Shown piece by piece: positions 728 to 63,759 of a stretch of 64,000 bases of DNA. Position 1 is the stretch's first letter; each line of letters starts with the position of its first letter. The DNA lies in assembly GCA_965247955.1 (NCBI GenBank), contig OZ252042.1:1968323-2032322 (forward strand), written 5' to 3'. The stretch comes from Vicinamibacterales bacterium. Its GTDB lineage: Bacteria > Acidobacteriota > Vicinamibacteria > Vicinamibacterales > UBA8438. The position numbers were made by a program, and so were the translations under genes. Below the pieces are notes generated by a model, which was not told where the DNA came from, did no database searches, and was given only the letters and a program-made list of their open reading frames with translations.

Positions 728-951
728 TGGGACGGTGACCGTGTCTCTTCAAGAGATGAGGATACGCTGGTGACCGCACAAGAAGTCACCGCCCCGTGGA
801 ATTGGTCGCGTCACGCGGCGAAGATTGGTCGGATTCGCTCGAAGGCGAGGGCATGTAATTGTACTAATGAAAGCGGATTTTGTGATTTTGTCTTGGAGGA
901 ATGGGTAGTGGTCTAGTTTGAAAAGCGCGGCCCCCTGGACAGATCGTCTCG

Positions 952-1185
952 ATGTGCGACAATTGGGTCGTGCCGACTCGGGCGAAAAAGAAACGGCCTC
1001 GCGATCCGAACCAGTTGGGTAAACTCGTCGTCGACATTGCGACGGGCGCAGCCCAGGACTCCGCTCCTCCTGGCCCCCAACGGGCAGGTGGCCTAAAGGG
1101 TGGTCCAGCCAGGGCGAACCGGCTGACGCCGATAGAGCGGACGGAAATCGCGAAGCTGGCTGCCCAGGCACGCTGGAAGAAATAG
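952..1185 (+). CDS. small basic protein (RPRDPNQL / RANRLTPIERTEIAKLAAQARW motifs), passenger gene
   Basis: 77-aa ORF with Lys/Arg-rich ends. The motif pattern resembles a widespread small protein often found near TA loci. Confidence 0.45.
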   Translation: MCDNWVVPTRAKKKRPRDPNQLGKLVVDIATGAAQDSAPPGPQRAGGLKGGPARANRLTPIERTEIAKLAAQARWKK

Positions 1186-1192
1186 CTGCTAA

Positions 1193-1645
1193 CTACTGCT
1201 GGCGTTCTGCAACATCTTCGCTGAAATCCAAGATTATCTGGATTTCGGGCACCTTCTCCTCGTTCATATCGTTGTAGACAATCACGTCGGTATTCAACTG
1301 AGCGCATTCGCCAACGATGTGCTCCCGACGTTGCGCAAAGGCTTTCTCCATGTGCTCATGGGGAGCGAATCCCATGATTGCCCAGAAGGACTGTGGCTTG
1401 CCGTCCTTGGTGGTCCGAACGGCATGGTTGACCCTATAGCGGTGACCCTTATGGGTGTCCAGCTCCTGCGCCAGGGCCTTGGACATTTGGTTCGCGAGAA
1501 CCTCGCACGGATCGATTGGAGGTGGCGTTGCGAGCAAGCCCTGGTTGATGGCCCAGTCAACGGCGTCCCGAGTACGAGATGGTGCATGTTCGTGCTCTGT
1601 CTCGTACAAGTGGAAAATGGCCTGCAGTGTCTCGTTCTTGGTCAT
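1193..1645 (-). CDS. hypothetical protein, third gene of the passenger operon
   Basis: 150 aa with no family recognised. Starts 17 nt after the stop of the XRE-peptidase gene on the same strand. Clean codon usage. Confidence 0.6.
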   Translation of the reverse strand: MTKNETLQAIFHLYETEHEHAPSRTRDAVDWAINQGLLATPPPIDPCEVLANQMSKALAQELDTHKGHRYRVNHAVRTTKDGKPQSFWAIMGFAPHEHMEKAFAQRREHIVGECAQLNTDVIVYNDMNEEKVPEIQIILDFSEDVAERQQ

Positions 1646-1662
1646 TGGTCAAGCCTCTGGAT

Positions 1663-2790
1663 TCATAGCGACACGGGAATGGTCTGCCCCCATCCATCGG
1701 CCATCGCCGAGGGCAGCACGAATTGACGTATTTTGACAAGGTGACGCGTTAGGTAATCCCAGCGGTCCATTCGCTTTTGCATCTGACCAATGATCAGTCC
1801 AGGGTGCCGCTGATGGAGCTTCGCAAAAGCCACAACATCCTTCTCGTAGTAGTACGGCTTCTTTCTCAGTAGGAAAGAAGCAAGCTTGTCTCGCGGGGCA
1901 CAGAAATCTGCCGCAGCCGCATTCGCAGCGATTTCCTCCGGGAGAATCGTGACCCCGGCGCGGGGTGCTCCAGCCAAGTCTTCGTCGATTACTTCCTCGT
2001 CCTGGCCGTCTCTCCGAAGAACGTGCTCGATCTCATGGCGCAGGACAAACCAGAAGTTATCGATGGTGTCTCGCTGCAGCGACATGCCGATGACGGGCGA
2101 GTTGTCGTTGAGCCAAAAACACACTCCGTCGATTCTCGCCTTCGGTAGTTTCTCAACGACGACGAACCGGATGCCGCATTCGGCCATGATTCGCGGTACA
2201 TGGCGTGTCTCTTCAGGAGCCCGAAGCAACGATTCCAGATCGCCGAGGGCCGTCTTCAACGCCTGCTTGGAGTACGCCGGGACCGTGATCGATTTGGCAA
2301 TCTGACGCACGCGAAAGAGCCATGCCAGTTGAGGTGCGGGAATGTGCCGTTCCTCATAGCGGCTCTTCTTCGCCGCGTGCGACAGGTACGGAATCTCGCT
2401 GGCGTCGGCAACCTCAAAGAAGCGCATAAACTGCGACTCCAACAGGGTCGTATCAGACGGTTCGATCCAACCCCGGCGAATCATCTCTCTGACCGGGAAT
2501 GCGCTCTGCATGTTCCGCCGCGCGGGGATGCTCGGGTCCGGGGTCTTGGCCTGCGACAGGTCGTAAGCCTGTTGGAGGTTCGCAAAGAACTCTGCGGACA
2601 CATCGAACGCCTCGCCGAGCGCCCGAGCCATATCGGCGCTGATCCCGCGCTTTCCAGACAGAATCATGTTCACGATCTGTTCCCTACAGCCAAGAATGAA
2701 CGCAAGGTCGCGCTGGAGCCAGCCACGTGTCTCCATCTCCTCCTTGATGTAGGAACCGGGGTGTTCGATCCACTCAGCATTCACAGTCAT
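1663..2790 (-). CDS. XRE HTH fused to an ImmA/IrrE (COG2856) zinc metallopeptidase domain
   Basis: 375 aa. N-terminal HTH (LQRDLAFILGCREQIVNMILSGKRGISADMARAL). HEIEH zinc motif (LRHEIEHVL) in the C-terminal half. Starts 9 nt after the HigB-like ORF. Confidence 0.8.
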   Translation of the reverse strand: MTVNAEWIEHPGSYIKEEMETRGWLQRDLAFILGCREQIVNMILSGKRGISADMARALGEAFDVSAEFFANLQQAYDLSQAKTPDPSIPARRNMQSAFPVREMIRRGWIEPSDTTLLESQFMRFFEVADASEIPYLSHAAKKSRYEERHIPAPQLAWLFRVRQIAKSITVPAYSKQALKTALGDLESLLRAPEETRHVPRIMAECGIRFVVVEKLPKARIDGVCFWLNDNSPVIGMSLQRDTIDNFWFVLRHEIEHVLRRDGQDEEVIDEDLAGAPRAGVTILPEEIAANAAAADFCAPRDKLASFLLRKKPYYYEKDVVAFAKLHQRHPGLIIGQMQKRMDRWDYLTRHLVKIRQFVLPSAMADGWGQTIPVSL

Positions 2791-2799
2791 AAGTCACCC

Positions 2800-3093
2800 T
2801 TAGTGGTAGTCTTCAACTTGTAGGATGGTTACTCTGTTCGGCTTGGATTCTGTGTCGATTGTAAAGACCAATCGCCATTGGTCGTTAATCCGAATCGAAC
2901 GTTCTTCACGTCGTCCTTTCAGCTTCTCGTAGTGCAGGCTCTTCCAGTTCCGCAGCGTTCGCTCGTCAGGTGCCTGTCGAATCACATGTAGTTTTCGCCT
3001 CAACGCTTTGATGACAGCAATCGGCAGTCGGGTCTCGGCGGCACGGTCCGTCTCGACAAGCGCAAGGGACGTGTCGCGGAACTCGATCTCCAT
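2800..3093 (-). CDS. higB: HigB-like (plasmid maintenance system killer) toxin
   Basis: 97 aa. The C-terminal RINDQWRLVF...V.ILQVEDYH pattern is typical of HigB/RelE-fold toxins. First gene of a 3-gene operon. Confidence 0.7.
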   Translation of the reverse strand: MEIEFRDTSLALVETDRAAETRLPIAVIKALRRKLHVIRQAPDERTLRNWKSLHYEKLKGRREERSIRINDQWRLVFTIDTESKPNRVTILQVEDYH

Positions 3094-3159
3094 CCAATCA
3101 CCGAAAACAGTATAGAGAAATACACTACTGAACGCAACTCGTTAAATTATCTTTTATGC

Positions 3160-3188
3160 TTGACATATCAGGTCTGGTTGATTACACT
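3160..3188 (+). promoter_or_regulatory. candidate sigma70-type promoter for the IS transposase (leaderless geometry)
   Basis: TTGACA (3160-3165), 17-nt spacer, TACACT (3183-3188). The ATG at 3196 lies 7 nt after the -10 element and has no SD. Confidence 0.4.
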
Positions 3189-3195
3189 TCGTCTC

Positions 3196-4038
3196 ATGAA
3201 TCGGCTAGACACGAAACGGCGGGCACAAGTCGTCGCCGCCCTAGTCGAAGGCAACAGCCTCCGGGCAACTGCCAGGATGACGGGCGTGGCTCGGATGACC
3301 GTCGAGAAGCTGCTGCGCGACTTGGGCGCAGCTTGTGCCGCGTACCAGGACGAGCATCTGCAGAATCTGCCCTGCCGCCGTATTCAGTGCGACGAGATCT
3401 GGTCGTTCGTGTACGCCAAAGCGAAGAACGTCGAGAGTGCGAAGGACGCGCCCGACGTGGCGGGCGACGTGTGGACTTGGACGGCCATTGATGCCGACAC
3501 CAAGCTGGTGCCATCGTGGCGCATCGGCTCGCGTGACTTGGCGACGGCCTATGACTTCATGCACGACCTTGCTGACCGGCTTCGGCACCGCGTGCAGCTC
3601 ACGACAGACGGCCACAAGCCCTACCTGGAGGCCATCGAGAGCGCGTTCAATTTGGACGTGGATTACGCGGTGCTCCAGAAGATTTACGGCGCGGACCCGC
3701 AGCCGCAGAAGCGGTACAGCCCTGCCAATTGCCTGGGCTACGACGTGAAGACGGTCACCGGCGAGCCGAACCCGAAGCACATCTCAACCAGCTTCGTTGA
3801 ACGGCAGAATCTCACGATGCGGATGAGCATGCGGAGATTCACGAGGCTGACCAACGCCTTCTCAAAGAAGGTCGAGATGCACGCGCACTCGGTGGCGCTG
3901 CATTTCATGCACTACAACTTCGTGAAGATCCACTCGACGCTGAGGACGACCCCGGCGCAGGCCGCTGGCGTGACCGACCGGCTGTGGGAAATTTCGGACC
4001 TCGTGGAATTGCTCGAAAGTACCGAGTCGTCAAACTAG
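3196..4038 (+). CDS. IS1-family DDE transposase (single-ORF type)
   Basis: 280 aa from ATG 3196; the ORF-track start at 3160 is a TTG inside the -35 element. N-terminal HTH. The C-terminal FVERQNLTMRMSMRRFTRLTNAFSKK motif is characteristic of IS1 transposases. The stop codon lies inside the right IR. Confidence 0.85.
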   Translation: MNRLDTKRRAQVVAALVEGNSLRATARMTGVARMTVEKLLRDLGAACAAYQDEHLQNLPCRRIQCDEIWSFVYAKAKNVESAKDAPDVAGDVWTWTAIDADTKLVPSWRIGSRDLATAYDFMHDLADRLRHRVQLTTDGHKPYLEAIESAFNLDVDYAVLQKIYGADPQPQKRYSPANCLGYDVKTVTGEPNPKHISTSFVERQNLTMRMSMRRFTRLTNAFSKKVEMHAHSVALHFMHYNFVKIHSTLRTTPAQAAGVTDRLWEISDLVELLESTESSN

Positions 4039-4054
4039 ACCACTACCAAGGAAT

Positions 4055-4156
4055 CGGCCCCTAATGTAGCGGTTTGACCGAAATACTCCCGTTTGGAATG
4101 TAGCGGTTTGACCGTTGAAAACTCCCACAAATCACATGATTCTGTGGAAATCATCC
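4055..4156. repeat. ori-like region A, proximal part: two iterons plus conserved box
   Basis: AATGTAGCGGTTTGACCG at 4063-4080 and 4097-4114, 34 bp apart. An adjacent ~45-bp box (4115-4156; minus strand GATTTCCACAGAATCATGTGA..GTTTTC) is homologous to boxes at 10243 and 23378. Lies 240-330 bp downstream of the repA stop. Confidence 0.6.
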
Positions 4157-4392: not shown

Positions 4393-5367
4393 CTATTCCA
4401 CGAGGCGCAGCTGCGAGGGCGGGATACGAGAGGGTGAGGGAGAGAGCAGCAACGCGCCCTTTGGCGTCGAGTAGTGAAGGTCTGGCCAGGCGCTTTTAAT
4501 TTTCGTCAGCTCCCGAAGGCACTTCGTACGAAAGTCGTTCACGATGTTCGTATCGCTTACGTGGGCCGGGTTCGATCCGAACTGACGGTACAGTCGCGGC
4601 CACGTGAGGCGCAGCGGGCGCTTCAACGTGAACGTCCGGTAGGCGAGCCACATGTAGAGATCGAGGCCCAACGAGGATCGCTTCATAGTCTTCAGGATGT
4701 GCAGGTCGAGCGGCACGGGATGGCGAATGACTTCCTCGAAAAACTTCTCACCAAGTTCGATCTTGCTCTCCCACAGCGTGCGGTCGTCGGGACGCCGCGG
4801 ATGCCACCAAAACTCTGTCCGATCGGCGACCAGCGAATTGACGCTCACTTCGCCGTGCTCGTGTTCATAGACCAACTGGACATAAGCATTAAACAGCCGC
4901 CGCATCTGCTCTTGGAGCCGACTACGCACCGCGCCGCCGCTGTTGTAGACACCCACACTCCGCATGAACGCCGAGAGCGAATCGCCGAGGATGAGCTCGC
5001 GGCTTTGCGTCCGCACCGCTTCGGTGCAGACCCACGCCAGGAGCAGGCGCGGGAAGTTACCGTAGGGCAATTTGTTGTCAACCCCAGCGGTCATGGCTAG
5101 AGTGAGCGGCCCATTGCGCCGGACGTGCTGCAGGCGGTCGCCGGGGTCGGTGCGCGGCAACGAACAGAGCGCGAGCATCCGCGCCATGAAGCCCAGGTCG
5201 GCGTCCACTTCACTGACCGCGACGAGCTGCGTTACCTGGTCGAGTTGGGTGAAGTGGCGGCGAGCCTGGGGCGCGCGTTCTCGGCGCGTGGGCACCAGGA
5301 CGCCGGGCAGGTCGACACCGGCGACCAACTCGCCGAGGGGCACGAACCCGTCTCGTTTACGCGCCAC
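4393..5367 (-). CDS. repA: plasmid replication initiator RepA (RepA_C type), apparently intact
   Basis: 324 aa. Motifs LALCSLPRT, RNGP.TL and LPYGNFPRLLLAWVCTEAVRTQ are shared with three paralogues in the window. Only full-length copy. Confidence 0.8.
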   Translation of the reverse strand: MARKRDGFVPLGELVAGVDLPGVLVPTRRERAPQARRHFTQLDQVTQLVAVSEVDADLGFMARMLALCSLPRTDPGDRLQHVRRNGPLTLAMTAGVDNKLPYGNFPRLLLAWVCTEAVRTQSRELILGDSLSAFMRSVGVYNSGGAVRSRLQEQMRRLFNAYVQLVYEHEHGEVSVNSLVADRTEFWWHPRRPDDRTLWESKIELGEKFFEEVIRHPVPLDLHILKTMKRSSLGLDLYMWLAYRTFTLKRPLRLTWPRLYRQFGSNPAHVSDTNIVNDFRTKCLRELTKIKSAWPDLHYSTPKGALLLSPSPSRIPPSQLRLVE

Positions 5368-5665
5368 GGCTTTGTGTCCTGCCCGCGCCCTCGCGACCGC
5401 TCAGCCAGTCTTCCAAGAGCGCCTGGAGCAAGTCTGACACATCCCGATCGGTCGATTCGTCGAGCAAGGCTCGCATCACGTTCCGGTGCGTGTCTTTCCG
5501 CACGAGCGCGCTGATCTGTTTGTAGTCGGGGTTACTCCGCTTGCCGCGGCGCGGCCGACCAAGGCTGCGCACGGCCCCCCGTTGGTCGTCACGGTCTCCC
5601 TCCGCGACGGCGGTCGCGCCAGTCCTGGCGTCCATCAATCCCGCAAAACGATTGTGCTTACCCAT
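5357..5665 (-). CDS. ParG-like ribbon-helix-helix partition protein
   Basis: 102 aa from ATG 5665, overlapping the parA stop. Basic N-terminal tail, then an RHH-like segment (YKQISALVRKDTHRNVMRALLDES). Position is typical of type Ib par loci. Confidence 0.5.
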   Translation of the reverse strand: MGKHNRFAGLMDARTGATAVAEGDRDDQRGAVRSLGRPRRGKRSNPDYKQISALVRKDTHRNVMRALLDESTDRDVSDLLQALLEDWLSGREGAGRTQSRGA

Positions 5666-6260
5666 GTGCCAGAATCTCCGTTCCCAAAACCTCGTAGGCA
5701 CGCCATGCCCGCCGTGCCCGCCGATCCGTGACGGCATGTACCAAGACACCTTCACTCGCAGCCTTGTCGAAGGCTTTGAGGCGAGGAATTTCAGCCGTAA
5801 AGAGAGGGATCCCCTGCGCCACCAATGCCGCGCGGAGGTCTTGCCCGTCGGTTTCCGGTGGTGGCGGGACTTTCGTGAGCAGCACCCAGTAGTTCTTGGC
5901 CGCCAGGCCATGGAGGGTCTGCAGCGTCCGTTGCAAGGCGCGGGTGTCAAGGGCGGCCGGTACCGTGGGGATGATCAGCACATCACAGCCCTGGGCTAAC
6001 TGGGCCAGGTCCGCAGGGTCCGGCTGCGCGTCTGTATCAATGACGACATGGTCGAACTGCCGCGCTGTGTGGGTGCCTTCCGCGACATCGACAATCGCGA
6101 ACGGGAGCGATCCTCCGGCCGCGCCCCATTCGGTCGCGCTACGGTTGGGGTCTCCATCGATCAGCACGGTCGCCGCGCGCGTCTGGAAATACGCGGCGAG
6201 ATGCACGGCGGTCGTGGTCTTCCCGACGCCGCCCTTGTCCGCGGCGACCGTGATGTACAC
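5658..6260 (-). CDS. parA: ParA partition ATPase (small, type Ib)
   Basis: Deviant Walker A motif KGGVGKTT at the N-terminus. 200 aa. Confidence 0.85.
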   Translation of the reverse strand: MYITVAADKGGVGKTTTAVHLAAYFQTRAATVLIDGDPNRSATEWGAAGGSLPFAIVDVAEGTHTARQFDHVVIDTDAQPDPADLAQLAQGCDVLIIPTVPAALDTRALQRTLQTLHGLAAKNYWVLLTKVPPPPETDGQDLRAALVAQGIPLFTAEIPRLKAFDKAASEGVLVHAVTDRRARRAWRAYEVLGTEILAHG

Positions 6261-25706: not shown

Positions 25707-25768
25707 GTACGTACTTGTCGGATTGTACTACTTGATCTGTACTACTTGTACGTGTAGCGGTTTGACCG
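25707..25768. repeat. ori-like region A, distal part: GTAC-rich repeats plus third iteron
   Basis: GTACGTACTTGT, then GTACTACTTG twice (inverse orientation of the 23438-23480 cluster), then TGTAGCGGTTTGACCG (25753-25768), immediately before the AAGGAAT/IS junction. Confidence 0.55.
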
Positions 25769-25824
25769 AAGGAATGGGTAGTGGTCTAGTTTGAAAAGCG
25801 CGGCCCCCTGGACAGATCGTCTCG

Positions 25825-26058
25825 ATGTGCGACAATTGGGTCGTGCCGACTCGGGCGAAAAAGAAACGGCCTCGCGATCCGAACCAGTTGGGTAAACTCG
25901 TCGTCGACATTGCGACGGGCGCAGCCCAGGACTCCGCTCCTCCTGGCCCCCAACGGGCAGGTGGCCTAAAGGGTGGTCCAGCCAGGGCGAACCGGCTGAC
26001 GCCGATAGAGCGGACGGAAATCGCGAAGCTGGCTGCCCAGGCACGCTGGAAGAAATAG
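25825..26058 (+). CDS. small basic protein (copy 2)
   Basis: Translation identical to 952-1185. Confidence 0.45.
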   Translation: MCDNWVVPTRAKKKRPRDPNQLGKLVVDIATGAAQDSAPPGPQRAGGLKGGPARANRLTPIERTEIAKLAAQARWKK

Positions 26059-26065
26059 CTGCTAA

Positions 26066-26518
26066 CTACTGCTGGCGTTCTGCAACATCTTCGCTGAAAT
26101 CCAAGATTATCTGGATTTCGGGCACCTTCTCCTCGTTCATATCGTTGTAGACAATCACGTCGGTATTCAACTGAGCGCATTCGCCAACGATGTGCTCCCG
26201 ACGTTGCGCAAAGGCTTTCTCCATGTGCTCATGGGGAGCGAATCCCATGATTGCCCAGAAGGACTGTGGCTTGCCGTCCTTGGTGGTCCGAACGGCATGG
26301 TTGACCCTATAGCGGTGACCCTTATGGGTGTCCAGCTCCTGCGCCAGGGCCTTGGACATTTGGTTCGCGAGAACCTCGCACGGATCGATTGGAGGTGGCG
26401 TTGCGAGCAAGCCCTGGTTGATGGCCCAGTCAACGGCGTCCCGAGTACGAGATGGTGCATGTTCGTGCTCTGTCTCGTACAAGTGGAAAATGGCCTGCAG
26501 TGTCTCGTTCTTGGTCAT
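26066..26518 (-). CDS. hypothetical 150-aa passenger protein (copy 2)
   Basis: Translation identical to 1193-1645. Confidence 0.6.
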   Translation of the reverse strand: MTKNETLQAIFHLYETEHEHAPSRTRDAVDWAINQGLLATPPPIDPCEVLANQMSKALAQELDTHKGHRYRVNHAVRTTKDGKPQSFWAIMGFAPHEHMEKAFAQRREHIVGECAQLNTDVIVYNDMNEEKVPEIQIILDFSEDVAERQQ

Positions 26519-26535
26519 TGGTCAAGCCTCTGGAT

Positions 26536-27663
26536 TCATAGCGACACGGGAATGGTCTGCCCCCATCCATCGGCCATCGCCGAGGGCAGCACGAATTGAC
26601 GTATTTTGACAAGGTGACGCGTTAGGTAATCCCAGCGGTCCATTCGCTTTTGCATCTGACCAATGATCAGTCCAGGGTGCCGCTGATGGAGCTTCGCAAA
26701 AGCCACAACATCCTTCTCGTAGTAGTACGGCTTCTTTCTCAGTAGGAAAGAAGCAAGCTTGTCTCGCGGGGCACAGAAATCTGCCGCAGCCGCATTCGCA
26801 GCGATTTCCTCCGGGAGAATCGTGACCCCGGCGCGGGGTGCTCCAGCCAAGTCTTCGTCGATTACTTCCTCGTCCTGGCCGTCTCTCCGAAGAACGTGCT
26901 CGATCTCATGGCGCAGGACAAACCAGAAGTTATCGATGGTGTCTCGCTGCAGCGACATGCCGATGACGGGCGAGTTGTCGTTGAGCCAAAAACACACTCC
27001 GTCGATTCTCGCCTTCGGTAGTTTCTCAACGACGACGAACCGGATGCCGCATTCGGCCATGATTCGCGGTACATGGCGTGTCTCTTCAGGAGCCCGAAGC
27101 AACGATTCCAGATCGCCGAGGGCCGTCTTCAACGCCTGCTTGGAGTACGCCGGGACCGTGATCGATTTGGCAATCTGACGCACGCGAAAGAGCCATGCCA
27201 GTTGAGGTGCGGGAATGTGCCGTTCCTCATAGCGGCTCTTCTTCGCCGCGTGCGACAGGTACGGAATCTCGCTGGCGTCGGCAACCTCAAAGAAGCGCAT
27301 AAACTGCGACTCCAACAGGGTCGTATCAGACGGTTCGATCCAACCCCGGCGAATCATCTCTCTGACCGGGAATGCGCTCTGCATGTTCCGCCGCGCGGGG
27401 ATGCTCGGGTCCGGGGTCTTGGCCTGCGACAGGTCGTAAGCCTGTTGGAGGTTCGCAAAGAACTCTGCGGACACATCGAACGCCTCGCCGAGCGCCCGAG
27501 CCATATCGGCGCTGATCCCGCGCTTTCCAGACAGAATCATGTTCACGATCTGTTCCCTACAGCCAAGAATGAACGCAAGGTCGCGCTGGAGCCAGCCACG
27601 TGTCTCCATCTCCTCCTTGATGTAGGAACCGGGGTGTTCGATCCACTCAGCATTCACAGTCAT
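26536..27663 (-). CDS. XRE HTH-ImmA/IrrE metallopeptidase fusion (copy 2)
   Basis: Translation identical to 1663-2790. Confidence 0.8.
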   Translation of the reverse strand: MTVNAEWIEHPGSYIKEEMETRGWLQRDLAFILGCREQIVNMILSGKRGISADMARALGEAFDVSAEFFANLQQAYDLSQAKTPDPSIPARRNMQSAFPVREMIRRGWIEPSDTTLLESQFMRFFEVADASEIPYLSHAAKKSRYEERHIPAPQLAWLFRVRQIAKSITVPAYSKQALKTALGDLESLLRAPEETRHVPRIMAECGIRFVVVEKLPKARIDGVCFWLNDNSPVIGMSLQRDTIDNFWFVLRHEIEHVLRRDGQDEEVIDEDLAGAPRAGVTILPEEIAANAAAADFCAPRDKLASFLLRKKPYYYEKDVVAFAKLHQRHPGLIIGQMQKRMDRWDYLTRHLVKIRQFVLPSAMADGWGQTIPVSL

Positions 27664-27672
27664 AAGTCACCC

Positions 27673-27966
27673 TTAGTGGTAGTCTTCAACTTGTAGGATG
27701 GTTACTCTGTTCGGCTTGGATTCTGTGTCGATTGTAAAGACCAATCGCCATTGGTCGTTAATCCGAATCGAACGTTCTTCACGTCGTCCTTTCAGCTTCT
27801 CGTAGTGCAGGCTCTTCCAGTTCCGCAGCGTTCGCTCGTCAGGTGCCTGTCGAATCACATGTAGTTTTCGCCTCAACGCTTTGATGACAGCAATCGGCAG
27901 TCGGGTCTCGGCGGCACGGTCCGTCTCGACAAGCGCAAGGGACGTGTCGCGGAACTCGATCTCCAT
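27673..27966 (-). CDS. higB: HigB-like toxin (copy 2)
   Basis: Translation identical to 2800-3093. Confidence 0.7.
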   Translation of the reverse strand: MEIEFRDTSLALVETDRAAETRLPIAVIKALRRKLHVIRQAPDERTLRNWKSLHYEKLKGRREERSIRINDQWRLVFTIDTESKPNRVTILQVEDYH

Positions 27967-28068
27967 CCAATCACCGAAAACAGTATAGAGAAATACACTA
28001 CTGAACGCAACTCGTTAAATTATCTTTTATGCTTGACATATCAGGTCTGGTTGATTACACTTCGTCTC

Positions 28069-28911
28069 ATGAATCGGCTAGACACGAAACGGCGGGCACA
28101 AGTCGTCGCCGCCCTAGTCGAAGGCAACAGCCTCCGGGCAACTGCCAGGATGACGGGCGTGGCTCGGATGACCGTCGAGAAGCTGCTGCGCGACTTGGGC
28201 GCAGCTTGTGCCGCGTACCAGGACGAGCATCTGCAGAATCTGCCCTGCCGCCGTATTCAGTGCGACGAGATCTGGTCGTTCGTGTACGCCAAAGCGAAGA
28301 ACGTCGAGAGTGCGAAGGACGCGCCCGACGTGGCGGGCGACGTGTGGACTTGGACGGCCATTGATGCCGACACCAAGCTGGTGCCATCGTGGCGCATCGG
28401 CTCGCGTGACTTGGCGACGGCCTATGACTTCATGCACGACCTTGCTGACCGGCTTCGGCACCGCGTGCAGCTCACGACAGACGGCCACAAGCCCTACCTG
28501 GAGGCCATCGAGAGCGCGTTCAATTTGGACGTGGATTACGCGGTGCTCCAGAAGATTTACGGCGCGGACCCGCAGCCGCAGAAGCGGTACAGCCCTGCCA
28601 ATTGCCTGGGCTACGACGTGAAGACGGTCACCGGCGAGCCGAACCCGAAGCACATCTCAACCAGCTTCGTTGAACGGCAGAATCTCACGATGCGGATGAG
28701 CATGCGGAGATTCACGAGGCTGACCAACGCCTTCTCAAAGAAGGTCGAGATGCACGCGCACTCGGTGGCGCTGCATTTCATGCACTACAACTTCGTGAAG
28801 ATCCACTCGACGCTGAGGACGACCCCGGCGCAGGCCGCTGGCGTGACCGACCGGCTGTGGGAAATTTCGGACCTCGTGGAATTGCTCGAAAGTACCGAGT
28901 CGTCAAACTAG
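28069..28911 (+). CDS. IS1-family transposase (copy 2)
   Basis: Translation identical to 3196-4038. Confidence 0.85.
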   Translation: MNRLDTKRRAQVVAALVEGNSLRATARMTGVARMTVEKLLRDLGAACAAYQDEHLQNLPCRRIQCDEIWSFVYAKAKNVESAKDAPDVAGDVWTWTAIDADTKLVPSWRIGSRDLATAYDFMHDLADRLRHRVQLTTDGHKPYLEAIESAFNLDVDYAVLQKIYGADPQPQKRYSPANCLGYDVKTVTGEPNPKHISTSFVERQNLTMRMSMRRFTRLTNAFSKKVEMHAHSVALHFMHYNFVKIHSTLRTTPAQAAGVTDRLWEISDLVELLESTESSN

Positions 28912-28973
28912 ACCACTACCGAAAACCCTAGGTCTCCCGTGTTCGCAACGTCTCTGGTGACAGCCGATTTGTG

Positions 28974-61078: not shown

Positions 61079-61218
61079 TCACAACGTTCTCCCCGTCCAC
61101 ATGACTTGCCCCAGCACCACAGCGTCACGTGGCCACGGCACCGGCTTGTACGCCTTGTGGTCGCTCACCAATTGCCAGCCGTCCTCGGTGCGCTGAAGCC
61201 CCTTGACCACCGGGCCGT
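61079..61218 (-). pseudogene. repressor 3'-end remnant R4
   Basis: GPVVKGLQRTEDGWQLVSDHKAYKPVPWPRDAVVLGQVMWTGRTL-stop. Nucleotide similarity to the full copy ends at 61218. Confidence 0.7.
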
Positions 61219-61226
61219 CTGTTCTC

Positions 61227-61685
61227 TCAACGAGGGATCGTCTTCGTCTCGGCCGCCCCTGGCACAAGAACTTCAAAGCGATCATCCCAAACGGACAGCA
61301 GTACGGTGTCTCGCGCACAGCCGTTAGGACACAGATCGCTCGTGACCGGTACGTCAATAAGAATCTCTGGCTCGTTGCGGCCAAGCGGGTAGAAGTAAAG
61401 CTGTTGGGTTGTGCCGACAGCTAGGCTCTCGTAGTCGCGGAAGTCACCACCAGACTCTAAGTTCGGAAACCAAGAACCTTCTCCCATGAGCCAAATCTCT
61501 GTCCTTTGTCCCTCAACGGGAATCTGATCCGTCTCGTCGCTCACAGACACGCGTAGCGTGATTGCGGATGCGACTTCCTGGGTGACGGGGCCGTCTTCCG
61601 GCACAGAATTACCAGGCGCGCCGCACGCCGCCGAGGTTAGGATGCTCACTGCGAGCGTCCCAACCCATGCGTGATTCCTGTTCAT
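61227..61685 (-). CDS. lipoprotein, unknown function
   Basis: MNRNHAWVGTLAVSILTSAAC signal/lipobox. The start ATG overlaps the stop of remnant R5 (ATGA). Confidence 0.55.
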   Translation of the reverse strand: MNRNHAWVGTLAVSILTSAACGAPGNSVPEDGPVTQEVASAITLRVSVSDETDQIPVEGQRTEIWLMGEGSWFPNLESGGDFRDYESLAVGTTQQLYFYPLGRNEPEILIDVPVTSDLCPNGCARDTVLLSVWDDRFEVLVPGAAETKTIPR

Positions 61686-61945
61686 AACGTTCTCCCCGTC
61701 CACATCACTTGCCCCAACACGACCGCCCCGTCCGGCCACGGCACCGGCTTGTAGGCTTTGTTGTCGCTGACAAGCTGCCAGCCGTCCTCGGTGCGCTGAA
61801 GCCGCTTGACCACCGGGCCGTTTTCGGTGCGCACCGCGAAGATCTTGTCCCGCCGCCGCACGGTGCGCTGAAAGTCCACGAGGATCATCGCGCGGTTCTC
61901 GAGCGTCGGCTCTATCGAATCGCCGGTGACTTCGATGACGCGGCA
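61682..61945 (-). pseudogene. repressor 3'-end remnant R5 (S24 peptidase domain only)
   Basis: CRVIEVTGDSIEPTL...WQLVSDNKAYKPVPWPDGAVVLGQVMWTGRTL-stop. A stretch of about 95 nt is identical to the full copy. Confidence 0.75.
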
Positions 61946-62794: not shown

Positions 62795-63055
62795 TTAGCC
62801 GGGACTAATGAGTGCGAGACGAAAGTCTTGGCCATCTTGCGAGATCGCCGCGTCTAGCATTTCGGGGTAGTTCTTGATAGTCTCAATGGCGAGCATTTCC
62901 TGCAGTGCGCGATCCGCATCGTCGCCGGGCGTGCTCTCCTCGACGTCTGCCGAAGGCGCGGGTTCCTCCTCGGGTGCCTCGGTGCATCCGATCCCAACCA
63001 CAACACAGAGCGCCGCAATTACGATGACCTCTTGTCGGCCGCAATTCCTGTTCAC
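62795..63055 (-). CDS. small lipoprotein, unknown function
   Basis: VNRNCGRQEVIVIAALCVVVGIGC signal/lipobox. The GTG start overlaps the repressor stop (GTGA). Confidence 0.45.
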   Translation of the reverse strand: MNRNCGRQEVIVIAALCVVVGIGCTEAPEEEPAPSADVEESTPGDDADRALQEMLAIETIKNYPEMLDAAISQDGQDFRLALISPG

Positions 63056-63759
63056 AATGTCCTCCCCGTCCACATCACCTGCCCGATCACCTGACCGTCG
63101 CGGGGCCACGGCACCGGCTTGTACGCCTTGTTGTCGCTCACTAATTGCCAGCCGTCCTCGGTGCGCTGAAGCCGCTTGACCACCGGGCCGTTTTCGGTGC
63201 GCACCGCGAAGATCTTGTCCCGCCGCCGCACGGTGCGCTGGAAATCCACGAGGATCATCGCGCGGTGCTGCAGCGTCGGCTCCATCGAATCGCCCGTGAC
63301 TTCGATGACGCGGCAGCGTTTCGGATTCAGGCTGTGCCGTCGTAGCCAGTCGTCCCGGAAGGCGAGGCTACCCAACACGCGCTCGTCGTCGGGGTTGGCT
63401 CCCGGGCCAGCGGCGATCCCCATCCCCGTGGTGAGCAGCACGGGCCTGAACTCGCGGCTGTCGGCAGGCGCCAGCGCCCCGGCGTCGTCCAGCTCGCGCA
63501 CCACGTTGGCCCGCTCCTGGGCGAGTTCGGCGGCAAGTGTGGCGGCGGGCTCGGGGTTGTCCGTGAGGCCCGCCAGGTAGTCGAGCGAAATATTGAGTTC
63601 ACGAGCGGCCTTCGTCGCGCCGTCGAACAGCAAAGACGAACGGCCGTTCTCAACGTGCGAGATCATCTGCTGGTTGTAGCGATCACCAAGCGCTACAGCT
63701 AGCTCAACCTGCTTCAGTCCCACGCGCCTTCTCGCCTCGGCCAAGCGCTCTCCGAGCAT
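63052..63759 (-). CDS. CI/LexA-type repressor: XRE HTH plus S24 peptidase domain, intact
   Basis: 235 aa. HTH segment LKQVELAVALGDRYNQQMISHVENGRS. S24 domain with GDSMEPTL (Ser) and VVKRL (Lys). Confidence 0.85.
   Translation of the reverse strand: MLGERLAEARRRVGLKQVELAVALGDRYNQQMISHVENGRSSLLFDGATKAARELNISLDYLAGLTDNPEPAATLAAELAQERANVVRELDDAGALAPADSREFRPVLLTTGMGIAAGPGANPDDERVLGSLAFRDDWLRRHSLNPKRCRVIEVTGDSMEPTLQHRAMILVDFQRTVRRRDKIFAVRTENGPVVKRLQRTEDGWQLVSDNKAYKPVPWPRDGQVIGQVMWTGRTL

Follow-up and report, generated by a model that had tools for sequence, protein, structure and literature searches.

The window analysed here is a stretch of 64,000 nt from the genome of a Vicinamibacterales bacterium (GCA_965247955.1, contig OZ252042.1, positions 1,968,323-2,032,322, forward strand), and it contains a three-gene operon carried as cargo within an insertion sequence (IS) of the IS1 family. 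Three co-oriented minus-strand open reading frames (ORFs), which we refer to as A, B and C, lie within 3093..1193 of the window. Gene A (2800..3093) encodes a 97-aa protein that is, by homology, a RelE-superfamily toxin of the HigB/GraT type; gene B (1663..2790) encodes a 375-aa protein in which a helix-turn-helix (HTH) domain of the HigA/GraA type is fused to an M78 (ImmA/IrrE) HExxH zinc peptidase; and gene C (1193..1645) encodes a 150-aa protein of an undescribed family. The genes are closely packed, with gaps of 9 nt between A and B and 17 nt between B and C, and the toxin-like A precedes the HigA-type B, which is followed by C. The IS that encloses them (904..4047, plus strand; 3,144 bp) has perfect 18-bp terminal inverted repeats (GGTAGTGGTCTAGTTTGA, beginning GGTAGTG) at 904-921 and 4030-4047, and reads, from the left repeat to the right one, as a small gene S, then C, B and A on the minus strand, and then the transposase gene T.

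The affinities of A and of the N-terminus of B lie with a single complex. The A protein exceeds the cut-off of Pfam PF05015 (HigB-like_toxin; 37.2 bits, cut-off 27), retains the SIRINDQWRLVF motif and a C-terminal DYH when its sequence is read directly, and has as its best PDB sequence match chain B of 6F8S ('Putative Killer protein', E=1e-7). The HTH of B, at about residues 9-82, matches Pfam HTH_3 and exceeds the cut-off of the NCBIfam HigA equivalog TIGR02607 (51.9 bits, cut-off 47.7), and the best PDB match of B is chain A of 6F8S ('XRE family transcriptional regulator', E=3e-9); the top PDB matches of the two proteins are therefore the two chains of one toxin-antitoxin complex. The peptidase domain of B, at about residues 210-315, carries the motif H252-E-I-E-H256. 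Its match to Pfam M78 (PF06114) is weak, at 18.4 bits under the cut-off of 22 (E=0.0019), and a PHROG metallo-protease profile matches at 0.0014; the HExxH motif and a downstream EE..AN..A..FC motif are kept in all 82 B homologues compared, including those of a clade without gene A that is considered below. A preliminary description of this locus, which had proposed a HigB-like toxin followed by a 375-aa XRE HTH-HEIEH metallopeptidase fusion and had named the integrity of the peptidase fold as a point to be checked, is upheld in its gene identities, and the peptidase motif is intact.

That description had left the product of the third gene unrecognized, and searches of Pfam, NCBIfam, PADLOC and PHROGs with C likewise give no match. 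The protein is acidic (pI 5.4). A word-indexed search gives 162 relatives with identities of at least 56%, and 936 (at 50% clustering) reach E<=1e-3 when 1.84 billion representatives are searched with a profile. The structure prediction that had been suggested for C was made with AF2 from a 92-sequence alignment, and in the model (pLDDT 97.4, pTM 0.79) three helices at the N-terminus precede a beta unit of four strands (62-90), after which come a long helix (96-127) and, at the C-terminus, a short one. When this model was compared by Foldseek with the PDB, and also with the viral structure library BFVD, nothing was found at E<=0.001, the best sub-threshold matches being Sac7d-like proteins for the beta part (E~1) and an unnamed viral protein (E=0.012); a profile search of PDB sequences with C also found nothing. 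A first model, built from a 24-sequence alignment, had reached only pLDDT 66, and its fold matches were meaningless. C is thus a member of a large undescribed family, with a confidently predicted fold for which the PDB offers no match. A role as a SecB-like chaperone, as in toxin-antitoxin-chaperone systems, was considered and ruled out, there being neither a SecB Pfam match nor a fold match.

The linkage of these genes was followed through 80 genome loci, whose hosts include Acidobacteriota, Alphaproteobacteria and Nitrospinota. The gene directly upstream of C is B in every one of them, so C is not the independently distributed gene that it might have proved to be; three annotated plasmids, with C identities as low as 34%, show the same adjacency, as do remote metagenome members whose C is about 30% identical. 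About 68 of the 80 loci contain A, and about 60 contain T, divergent from the operon, and S, adjoining C. Among 301 genomes sampled from the same phylum, C was found in five, while 24 had B-like and 51 had T-like proteins, a patchy distribution of the kind expected of a mobile element, with T homologues far commoner than C. At least 16 loci have A-B-C with neither T nor S, S being absent from those IS-free A-B-C loci that were checked, and in a tree of B the IS-free loci are scattered among the IS-borne copies such that at least eight changes of state are needed. A rough tally was made of the neighbours of the IS-free operons: in the 99 ORFs flanking 16 such loci, PADLOC profiles matched ZorA, ZorB, ZorC, DpdB/DndB, mad2 and mad8 (MADS), DrmD and others, and individual loci adjoin Shedu, type I restriction-modification, Abi and Fic genes or large helicases. 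These neighbourhoods suggest that IS-free A-B-C operons are associated with defence islands. A phage origin was also considered and dropped; only four loci on viral contigs were found, all four interrupted by the contig end.

The IS itself shows the signs of a real mobile unit, namely its inverted repeats, the 8-bp duplications that surround its relatives, and the presence of three near-identical copies in this genome. A self-BLAST comparison gives 100% identity between 897-4047 and 25770-28920 over 3,151 bp, and the second copy (25777..28920, plus strand) accordingly holds an identical A-B-C operon at 26066-27966; the third copy, at another site in the 2.49-Mb genome, departs from these by four single-nucleotide polymorphisms, one of which gives Y313F in B. 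The preliminary description had correctly placed the operon on an IS and had counted the two copies in the window. Clean target-site duplications are absent at all three copies in this genome. About 20 related copies have GGTAGTG... inverted repeats and clean 8-bp target-site duplications around the whole 3.0-3.8-kb unit, showing that the cargo transposes with the element. Transposase gene T (3196..4038, plus strand) encodes an IS1-family DDE transposase of 280 aa from the ATG at 3196; the ORF is open from a TTG at 3160, and since tblastn alignments of relatives begin at residues 12-13 of the longer ORF, the ATG is most likely the start. T exceeds the cut-off of PF03400 (34.3 bits, cut-off 24.1) and matches NF033558 with E=1.4e-17 (64.3 bits, under the cut-off of 100), and the element may correspond to the ISMhu11-type group of ISfinder.

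Gene S (952..1185, plus strand), which is convergent with C, encodes a 77-aa basic protein (pI 11) that belongs to no Pfam family but has a conserved C-terminal motif, ...L(T/S)xExRxEIAxxAAxARW; a homologue in M. loti is labelled 'histone H1'. As a small gene upstream of the transposase and on the same strand, S may be the counterpart of IS1 InsA, although it has zero cysteines and no detectable similarity to InsA. One relative (L138:1435-2770) is an element of 1,336 bp with the same kind of ends that holds S then T only, and in other relatives the slot between S and T is occupied by a gene for a 399-aa P-loop ATPase-like protein, by a Gp49/RelE-like gene with an HTH gene, by a retropepsin-like gene, or by others; the same-phylum relatives with alternative cargo or none are L126, L127, L136, L137, L150 and L138. 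Together with the IS-free A-B-C operons, these elements indicate that the backbone consists of S, T and the inverted repeats, and that A-B-C is a portable cassette. The element resembles transporter ISs of the IS1 family (the transporter IS concept is from PMC9330008) in its single-ORF DDE transposase, its GGnnnTG-type ends, its 8-bp target-site duplications and the position of its passengers inside the inverted repeats, but differs in having the small basic S as part of the backbone and a fixed S-T slot with interchangeable cargo that is TA- (toxin-antitoxin) or defence-like. A literature search for IS1 elements bearing A-B-C cargo found nothing specific.

The region between A and T is 102 nt long, 15 bp shorter than the 117 nt of close relatives, and it holds an operator-like palindrome, TTAACG-N5-CGTTCA on the operon strand (3129..3145), between two divergent promoters. 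The transposase promoter-like site, TTGACA-17-TACACT (3160..3188, plus strand), scores 10/12 in a consensus scan and lies 7 nt before the ATG at 3196, a leaderless geometry; its core, ATGCTTGACA, is kept in front of T throughout the IS family, cargo-less members included. The operon promoter-like site, read from the sequence on the minus strand, has its -10 TATACT at 3114..3109 and its -35 TTGCGT at 3137..3132, with a 17-nt spacer, and the -35 box overlaps an arm of the operator; relatives have TTGACA-17-TAnnnT instead. In most IS-borne loci scored the two -35 boxes are a constant 37-38 bp apart and the spacer contains a conserved palindrome, TTAACGC-N3-GCGTTAA, the operator of the A-B-C lineage lying ~15 bp from the -35 box of the transposase. 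The spacer of the clade without A contains TCCCC-N5-GGGGA instead. In the IS-free A-B-C loci the palindrome is better formed, with arms of up to 14 bp (for example GACGACTGAACGCATTGCGTTCAGTCGTC), and abuts the operon's own TTGACA -35 box. The palindrome thus stays with the operon when the IS is absent, whereas ATGCTTGACA comes with the IS family itself; the operator is therefore part of the cassette, and it lies near the transposase promoter because of where the cassette sits. It is most plausibly bound by the HTH of B, and the operon and transposase promoters may be coupled. The intergenic element was also considered as a binding site for the transposase, in view of its resemblance to the inner part of the inverted repeat, and this was set aside because the IS-free operons keep the palindrome. 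In four elements with no A-B-C (L131, L133, L137 and L138) an inverted repeat, ATGCTTGA(C/G)...(G/C)TCAAGCAT, spans the transposase promoter and may serve in autoregulation; only its left half is retained in the elements that carry A-B-C.

An operator so placed is one of the observations that would be expected if B and C, possibly with S, were the element's own switch, with B repressing the transposase, self-cleavage of B under stress, aided by C, relieving that repression, and A serving as an accessory addiction toxin. Precedents for such switches are ImmR/ImmA of ICEBs1 and DdrO/IrrE, in which, as here, an HTH repressor has an M78 metallopeptidase as its partner, and COG2856 proteases are described as cleaving the Xre repressors of mobile elements (PMC2701414). 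In ImmR/ImmA and DdrO/IrrE, repressor and protease are two proteins that regulate a mobile element or a regulon, whereas in B they are fused, within a TA-like cassette that includes C. The proposal gains from the dispensability of A in elements that always retain B and C, and from the co-divergence of T with the cargo: in the IS-borne lineage the Mantel correlations of T with B and with C (r 0.66 and 0.60) are about as strong as that of B with C (0.69), and none of 2000 permutations reaches these values, although shared host phylogeny may contribute to these correlations. The element of S and T alone, and those with other cargo, show that T does without B and C. Moreover, most of the IS-free A-B-C loci in which A is intact keep the palindrome, which marks the operator as the operon's, and the transposase promoter core is a property of the IS family. 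On this evidence we consider a switch of the element's own to be unlikely.

The PADLOC profile PD-Lambda-2_B (PDLC03982) matches B with E=4.1e-44 (149.5 bits), and the alignment covers residues 13-351 of B and positions 62-387 of the 402 in the profile. PD-lambda-2, found in E. coli ECOR42 (Vassallo et al. 2022, PMC9519451), defends against phage by abortive infection and has three genes, in which a HigB-like A is followed by a fusion of a HigA-type HTH and a peptidase (B) and by a third gene (C). The toxicity of B on its own was rescued by A, and C was needed for defence and not for neutralization (PMC9519451). The two operons have the same gene order, a HigB-like protein of the RelE superfamily, an Xre/HigA HTH-M78 fusion and a third gene. 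They differ in that A of PD-lambda-2 belongs to PF09907, its B to PF06114 and its C to PF14350, Beta_protein (PMC9519451 tables), whereas A here belongs to PF05015, a different family of the same superfamily, and C, at 150 aa, comes from an undescribed family and is not a Beta_protein of ~360 aa; B is the only shared component, and it is a remote relative of the E. coli protein. None of 92 C-family members matches PF14350, and C was accordingly ruled out as a homologue of PD-lambda-2 C. The module described here, moreover, lies inside an IS.

More distant B homologues in the phylum sample, at 25-32% identity, place these similarities in a broader context. They too have a HigB-like gene before them, and the gene that follows is interchangeable, encoding Beta_protein in the true PD-lambda-2 layout (at L112), DUF3800, GmrSD_N or HTH-SocA_Panacea, or being absent altogether. 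HigB with Xre-M78 is thus a two-gene core with a variable third position, at which C is one of the alternatives. As early as 2009, Makarova et al. (PMC2701414) had predicted that RelE together with Xre-COG2856 makes up a three-component TA system; the new component here is the third, C. The interpretation offered in the preliminary description, that of a TA-like or abortive-infection-like module, stands as far as the gene identities, the multicopy IS cargo and the general type of system are concerned, but it had overlooked both the 2009 prediction and the tested relative, PD-lambda-2 (PMC9519451). Its proposal that a protease controls the activity of the antitoxin is an inference, to be set beside the toxicity of B alone in PD-lambda-2, rescued by A, and beside the dispensability of A in one clade of the present family.

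We therefore think it somewhat probable that A-B-C is a PD-lambda-2-like tripartite toxin-antitoxin/abortive-infection cassette carried by an IS1-family transporter IS. This reading is supported by the near full-length match of B to a component of a tested abortive-infection system of like layout, by the 6F8S matches and the passing of the PF05015 and TIGR02607 cut-offs, and by the conservation of HExxH and the B-C linkage through genomes, plasmids and remote metagenome members. It is supported further by the HigB-like and variable third genes around distant B proteins, by the palindrome at the -35 box of IS-free operons, by the defence-gene neighbours of some of them, and, as regards the carrier, by the signs that the IS is mobile. 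In such a cassette A would be a ribosome-dependent mRNA endonuclease of the HigB/GraT type, and the HigA/GraA-type HTH of B would bind it; dimers of the same HTH would bind the palindromic operator upstream of the operon promoter, giving autorepression. The M78 domain of B, together with C, would provide the trigger or output arm, such that upon a signal, most plausibly phage infection, the peptidase would either inactivate the repressor/antitoxin part or cut another target. This would free A, with arrest of translation as the result, and C would fill the role that the unrelated Beta_protein has in PD-lambda-2.

Several points weigh against this interpretation. We favour the classic HigBA logic, and the polarity reported for PD-lambda-2, a toxic B rescued by A, runs the other way. 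A and C give zero matches to the PD-Lambda-2_A and PD-Lambda-2_C models even at E<=10, so that PADLOC would not call this system. Ten alphaproteobacterial elements have T-B-C-S with an intact HExxH and no A, and form a single clade (support 100/100), which indicates that B-C is the conserved core, with a role independent of A. The operon in this genome's copies is without a canonical TTGACA -35 box, the tally of defence-gene neighbours had no background control, and when evidence of expression was sought, no run of known RNA type contained the sequence.

The A-less clade, to which one further long-branch case outside it can be added, also argues against C being a mere passenger and is awkward for B as a toxin that needs A. 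It bears on a version of the system in which the PD-lambda-2 polarity applies directly, with B lethal through its peptidase, A its inhibitor and C the phage sensor. Behind this version stands the direct experimental result for PD-lambda-2, in which B is the toxic protein and C is required, and the universality of the B-C core, which A does not share, would accord with it. At least ten natural A-less elements nevertheless keep B with its HExxH intact, which is hard to square with an unneutralized toxin; A retains the signature motifs of HigB; and the E. coli protein from which the polarity is taken is only remotely related to B. We regard a lethal B as rather doubtful, and prefer A as the toxin with a clear, though not overwhelming, preference.

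Another alternative is an ordinary type II HigBA addiction module, which would stabilize the IS or the plasmid-like DNA around it, with C as a co-transcribed accessory and the peptidase having no signalling role. A and the N-terminus of B are homologous to a genuine HigBA-family pair, and the window has many TA and plasmid-maintenance modules. As in GraTA/HigBA modules (6F8S, 6F8H/6FIX; P. vulgaris HigBA 4MCX), the toxin gene comes first and a palindromic operator is located at the promoter, and the two 6F8S chains are the best matches of A and of residues 9-82 of B; unlike those modules, B has ~290 extra residues with the M78 domain, a third gene is obligately linked, and one clade is toxin-less. 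The strict conservation of C and of HExxH across deep divergence argues that both have a function, the clade without A retains B and C, and the homologous PD-lambda-2 requires its third gene for defence. In addition, IS1-type transposition leaves the donor copy in place without excision, so that post-segregational killing would be of little use to the IS. Taken together, these considerations make simple addiction quite improbable, and we return to the tripartite, PD-lambda-2-like cassette as the preferred interpretation.

A broader and more speculative proposal, which we put forward only tentatively and regard as rather unlikely, is that this IS1 subgroup, defined by T and S, GGTAGTG... ends and a single fixed slot, acts as a dedicated shuttle for interchangeable small defence or TA cassettes; that firing of the module, for instance by phage attack or by stress through the peptidase of B and C, would also derepress the transposase, whose -35 box is so near the operator, and the element would jump when its host is attacked; and that C would serve the M78 protease as a sensor or adaptor with a new fold.

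There are few tested examples of phage defence through an Xre-M78 protease fusion, PD-lambda-2 being one, and the locus and relatives described here show that the HigB and Xre-M78 core is modular, accepting unrelated third genes that include the ~150-aa C family (936 clusters at 50% identity), while the B-C pair persists without a HigB gene. Carried by an IS1-family element, the module has long been travelling through Acidobacteriota, Alphaproteobacteria and Nitrospinota. The compact natural variants A-B-C, B-C and A-B-Beta offer a handle on what the protease senses and cleaves, and the element provides a simple case in which to ask whether an IS benefits from defence cargo.

A number of further observations concern the relatives of the element. 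Two metagenome contigs with the A-less element (L157 and L158) have, directly beyond the transposase, a gene for a 550-560-aa fusion of N6_N4 methyltransferase, Mrr_cat and NA-iREase1, which may be extra cargo or just a neighbouring defence gene. In another genome (G130) three transposase matches are spaced every 2,555 bp on one contig, and in the genome studied here there are further distant or fragmentary T homologues (54-63% identity) at G000:C1:1625938-1626768, 372825-373319 and 2442047-2442677. A Vicinamibacterales metagenome-assembled genome (OZ252241.1) has two inverted copies of the same IS, L005 and L007, whose 8-bp flanks are swapped (cttgttca / tcaccttc against tcaccttc / cttgttca), the pattern left by a ~630-kb inversion through recombination between the IS copies.

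The 21.7 kb between the two direct copies in the window (4048-25769) looks plasmid-derived, and includes rep and par genes, among them RepA-like (4393-5367) and ParA-like (5658-6260) genes. In the flanks at 4048-4115 and 25733-25776 an iteron-like word, GTAGCGGTTTGACCG, occurs at 4066, 4100 and 25754, and the right flank of copy 1 (AAGGAATC) agrees with the left flank of copy 2 (AAGGAATG) at 7/8 positions, as if a single insertion site had been split. The rep and par genes, the iteron-like words and the agreement of the inner flanks suggest an integrated plasmid or an IS-flanked composite; a simple cointegrate or target-site-duplication origin of the two copies was ruled out, as the outer flanks differ. 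A separate TA-like pair is located at 20-727, where a gene for a Gp49-like RelE toxin (PF05973, E=8e-14) is followed by one for a 120-aa HTH_31/HTH_3 protein, and repeats of ~140-270 bp with 87-94% identity are present in the window at 61079-61218, 61674-61945 and 63044-63315.

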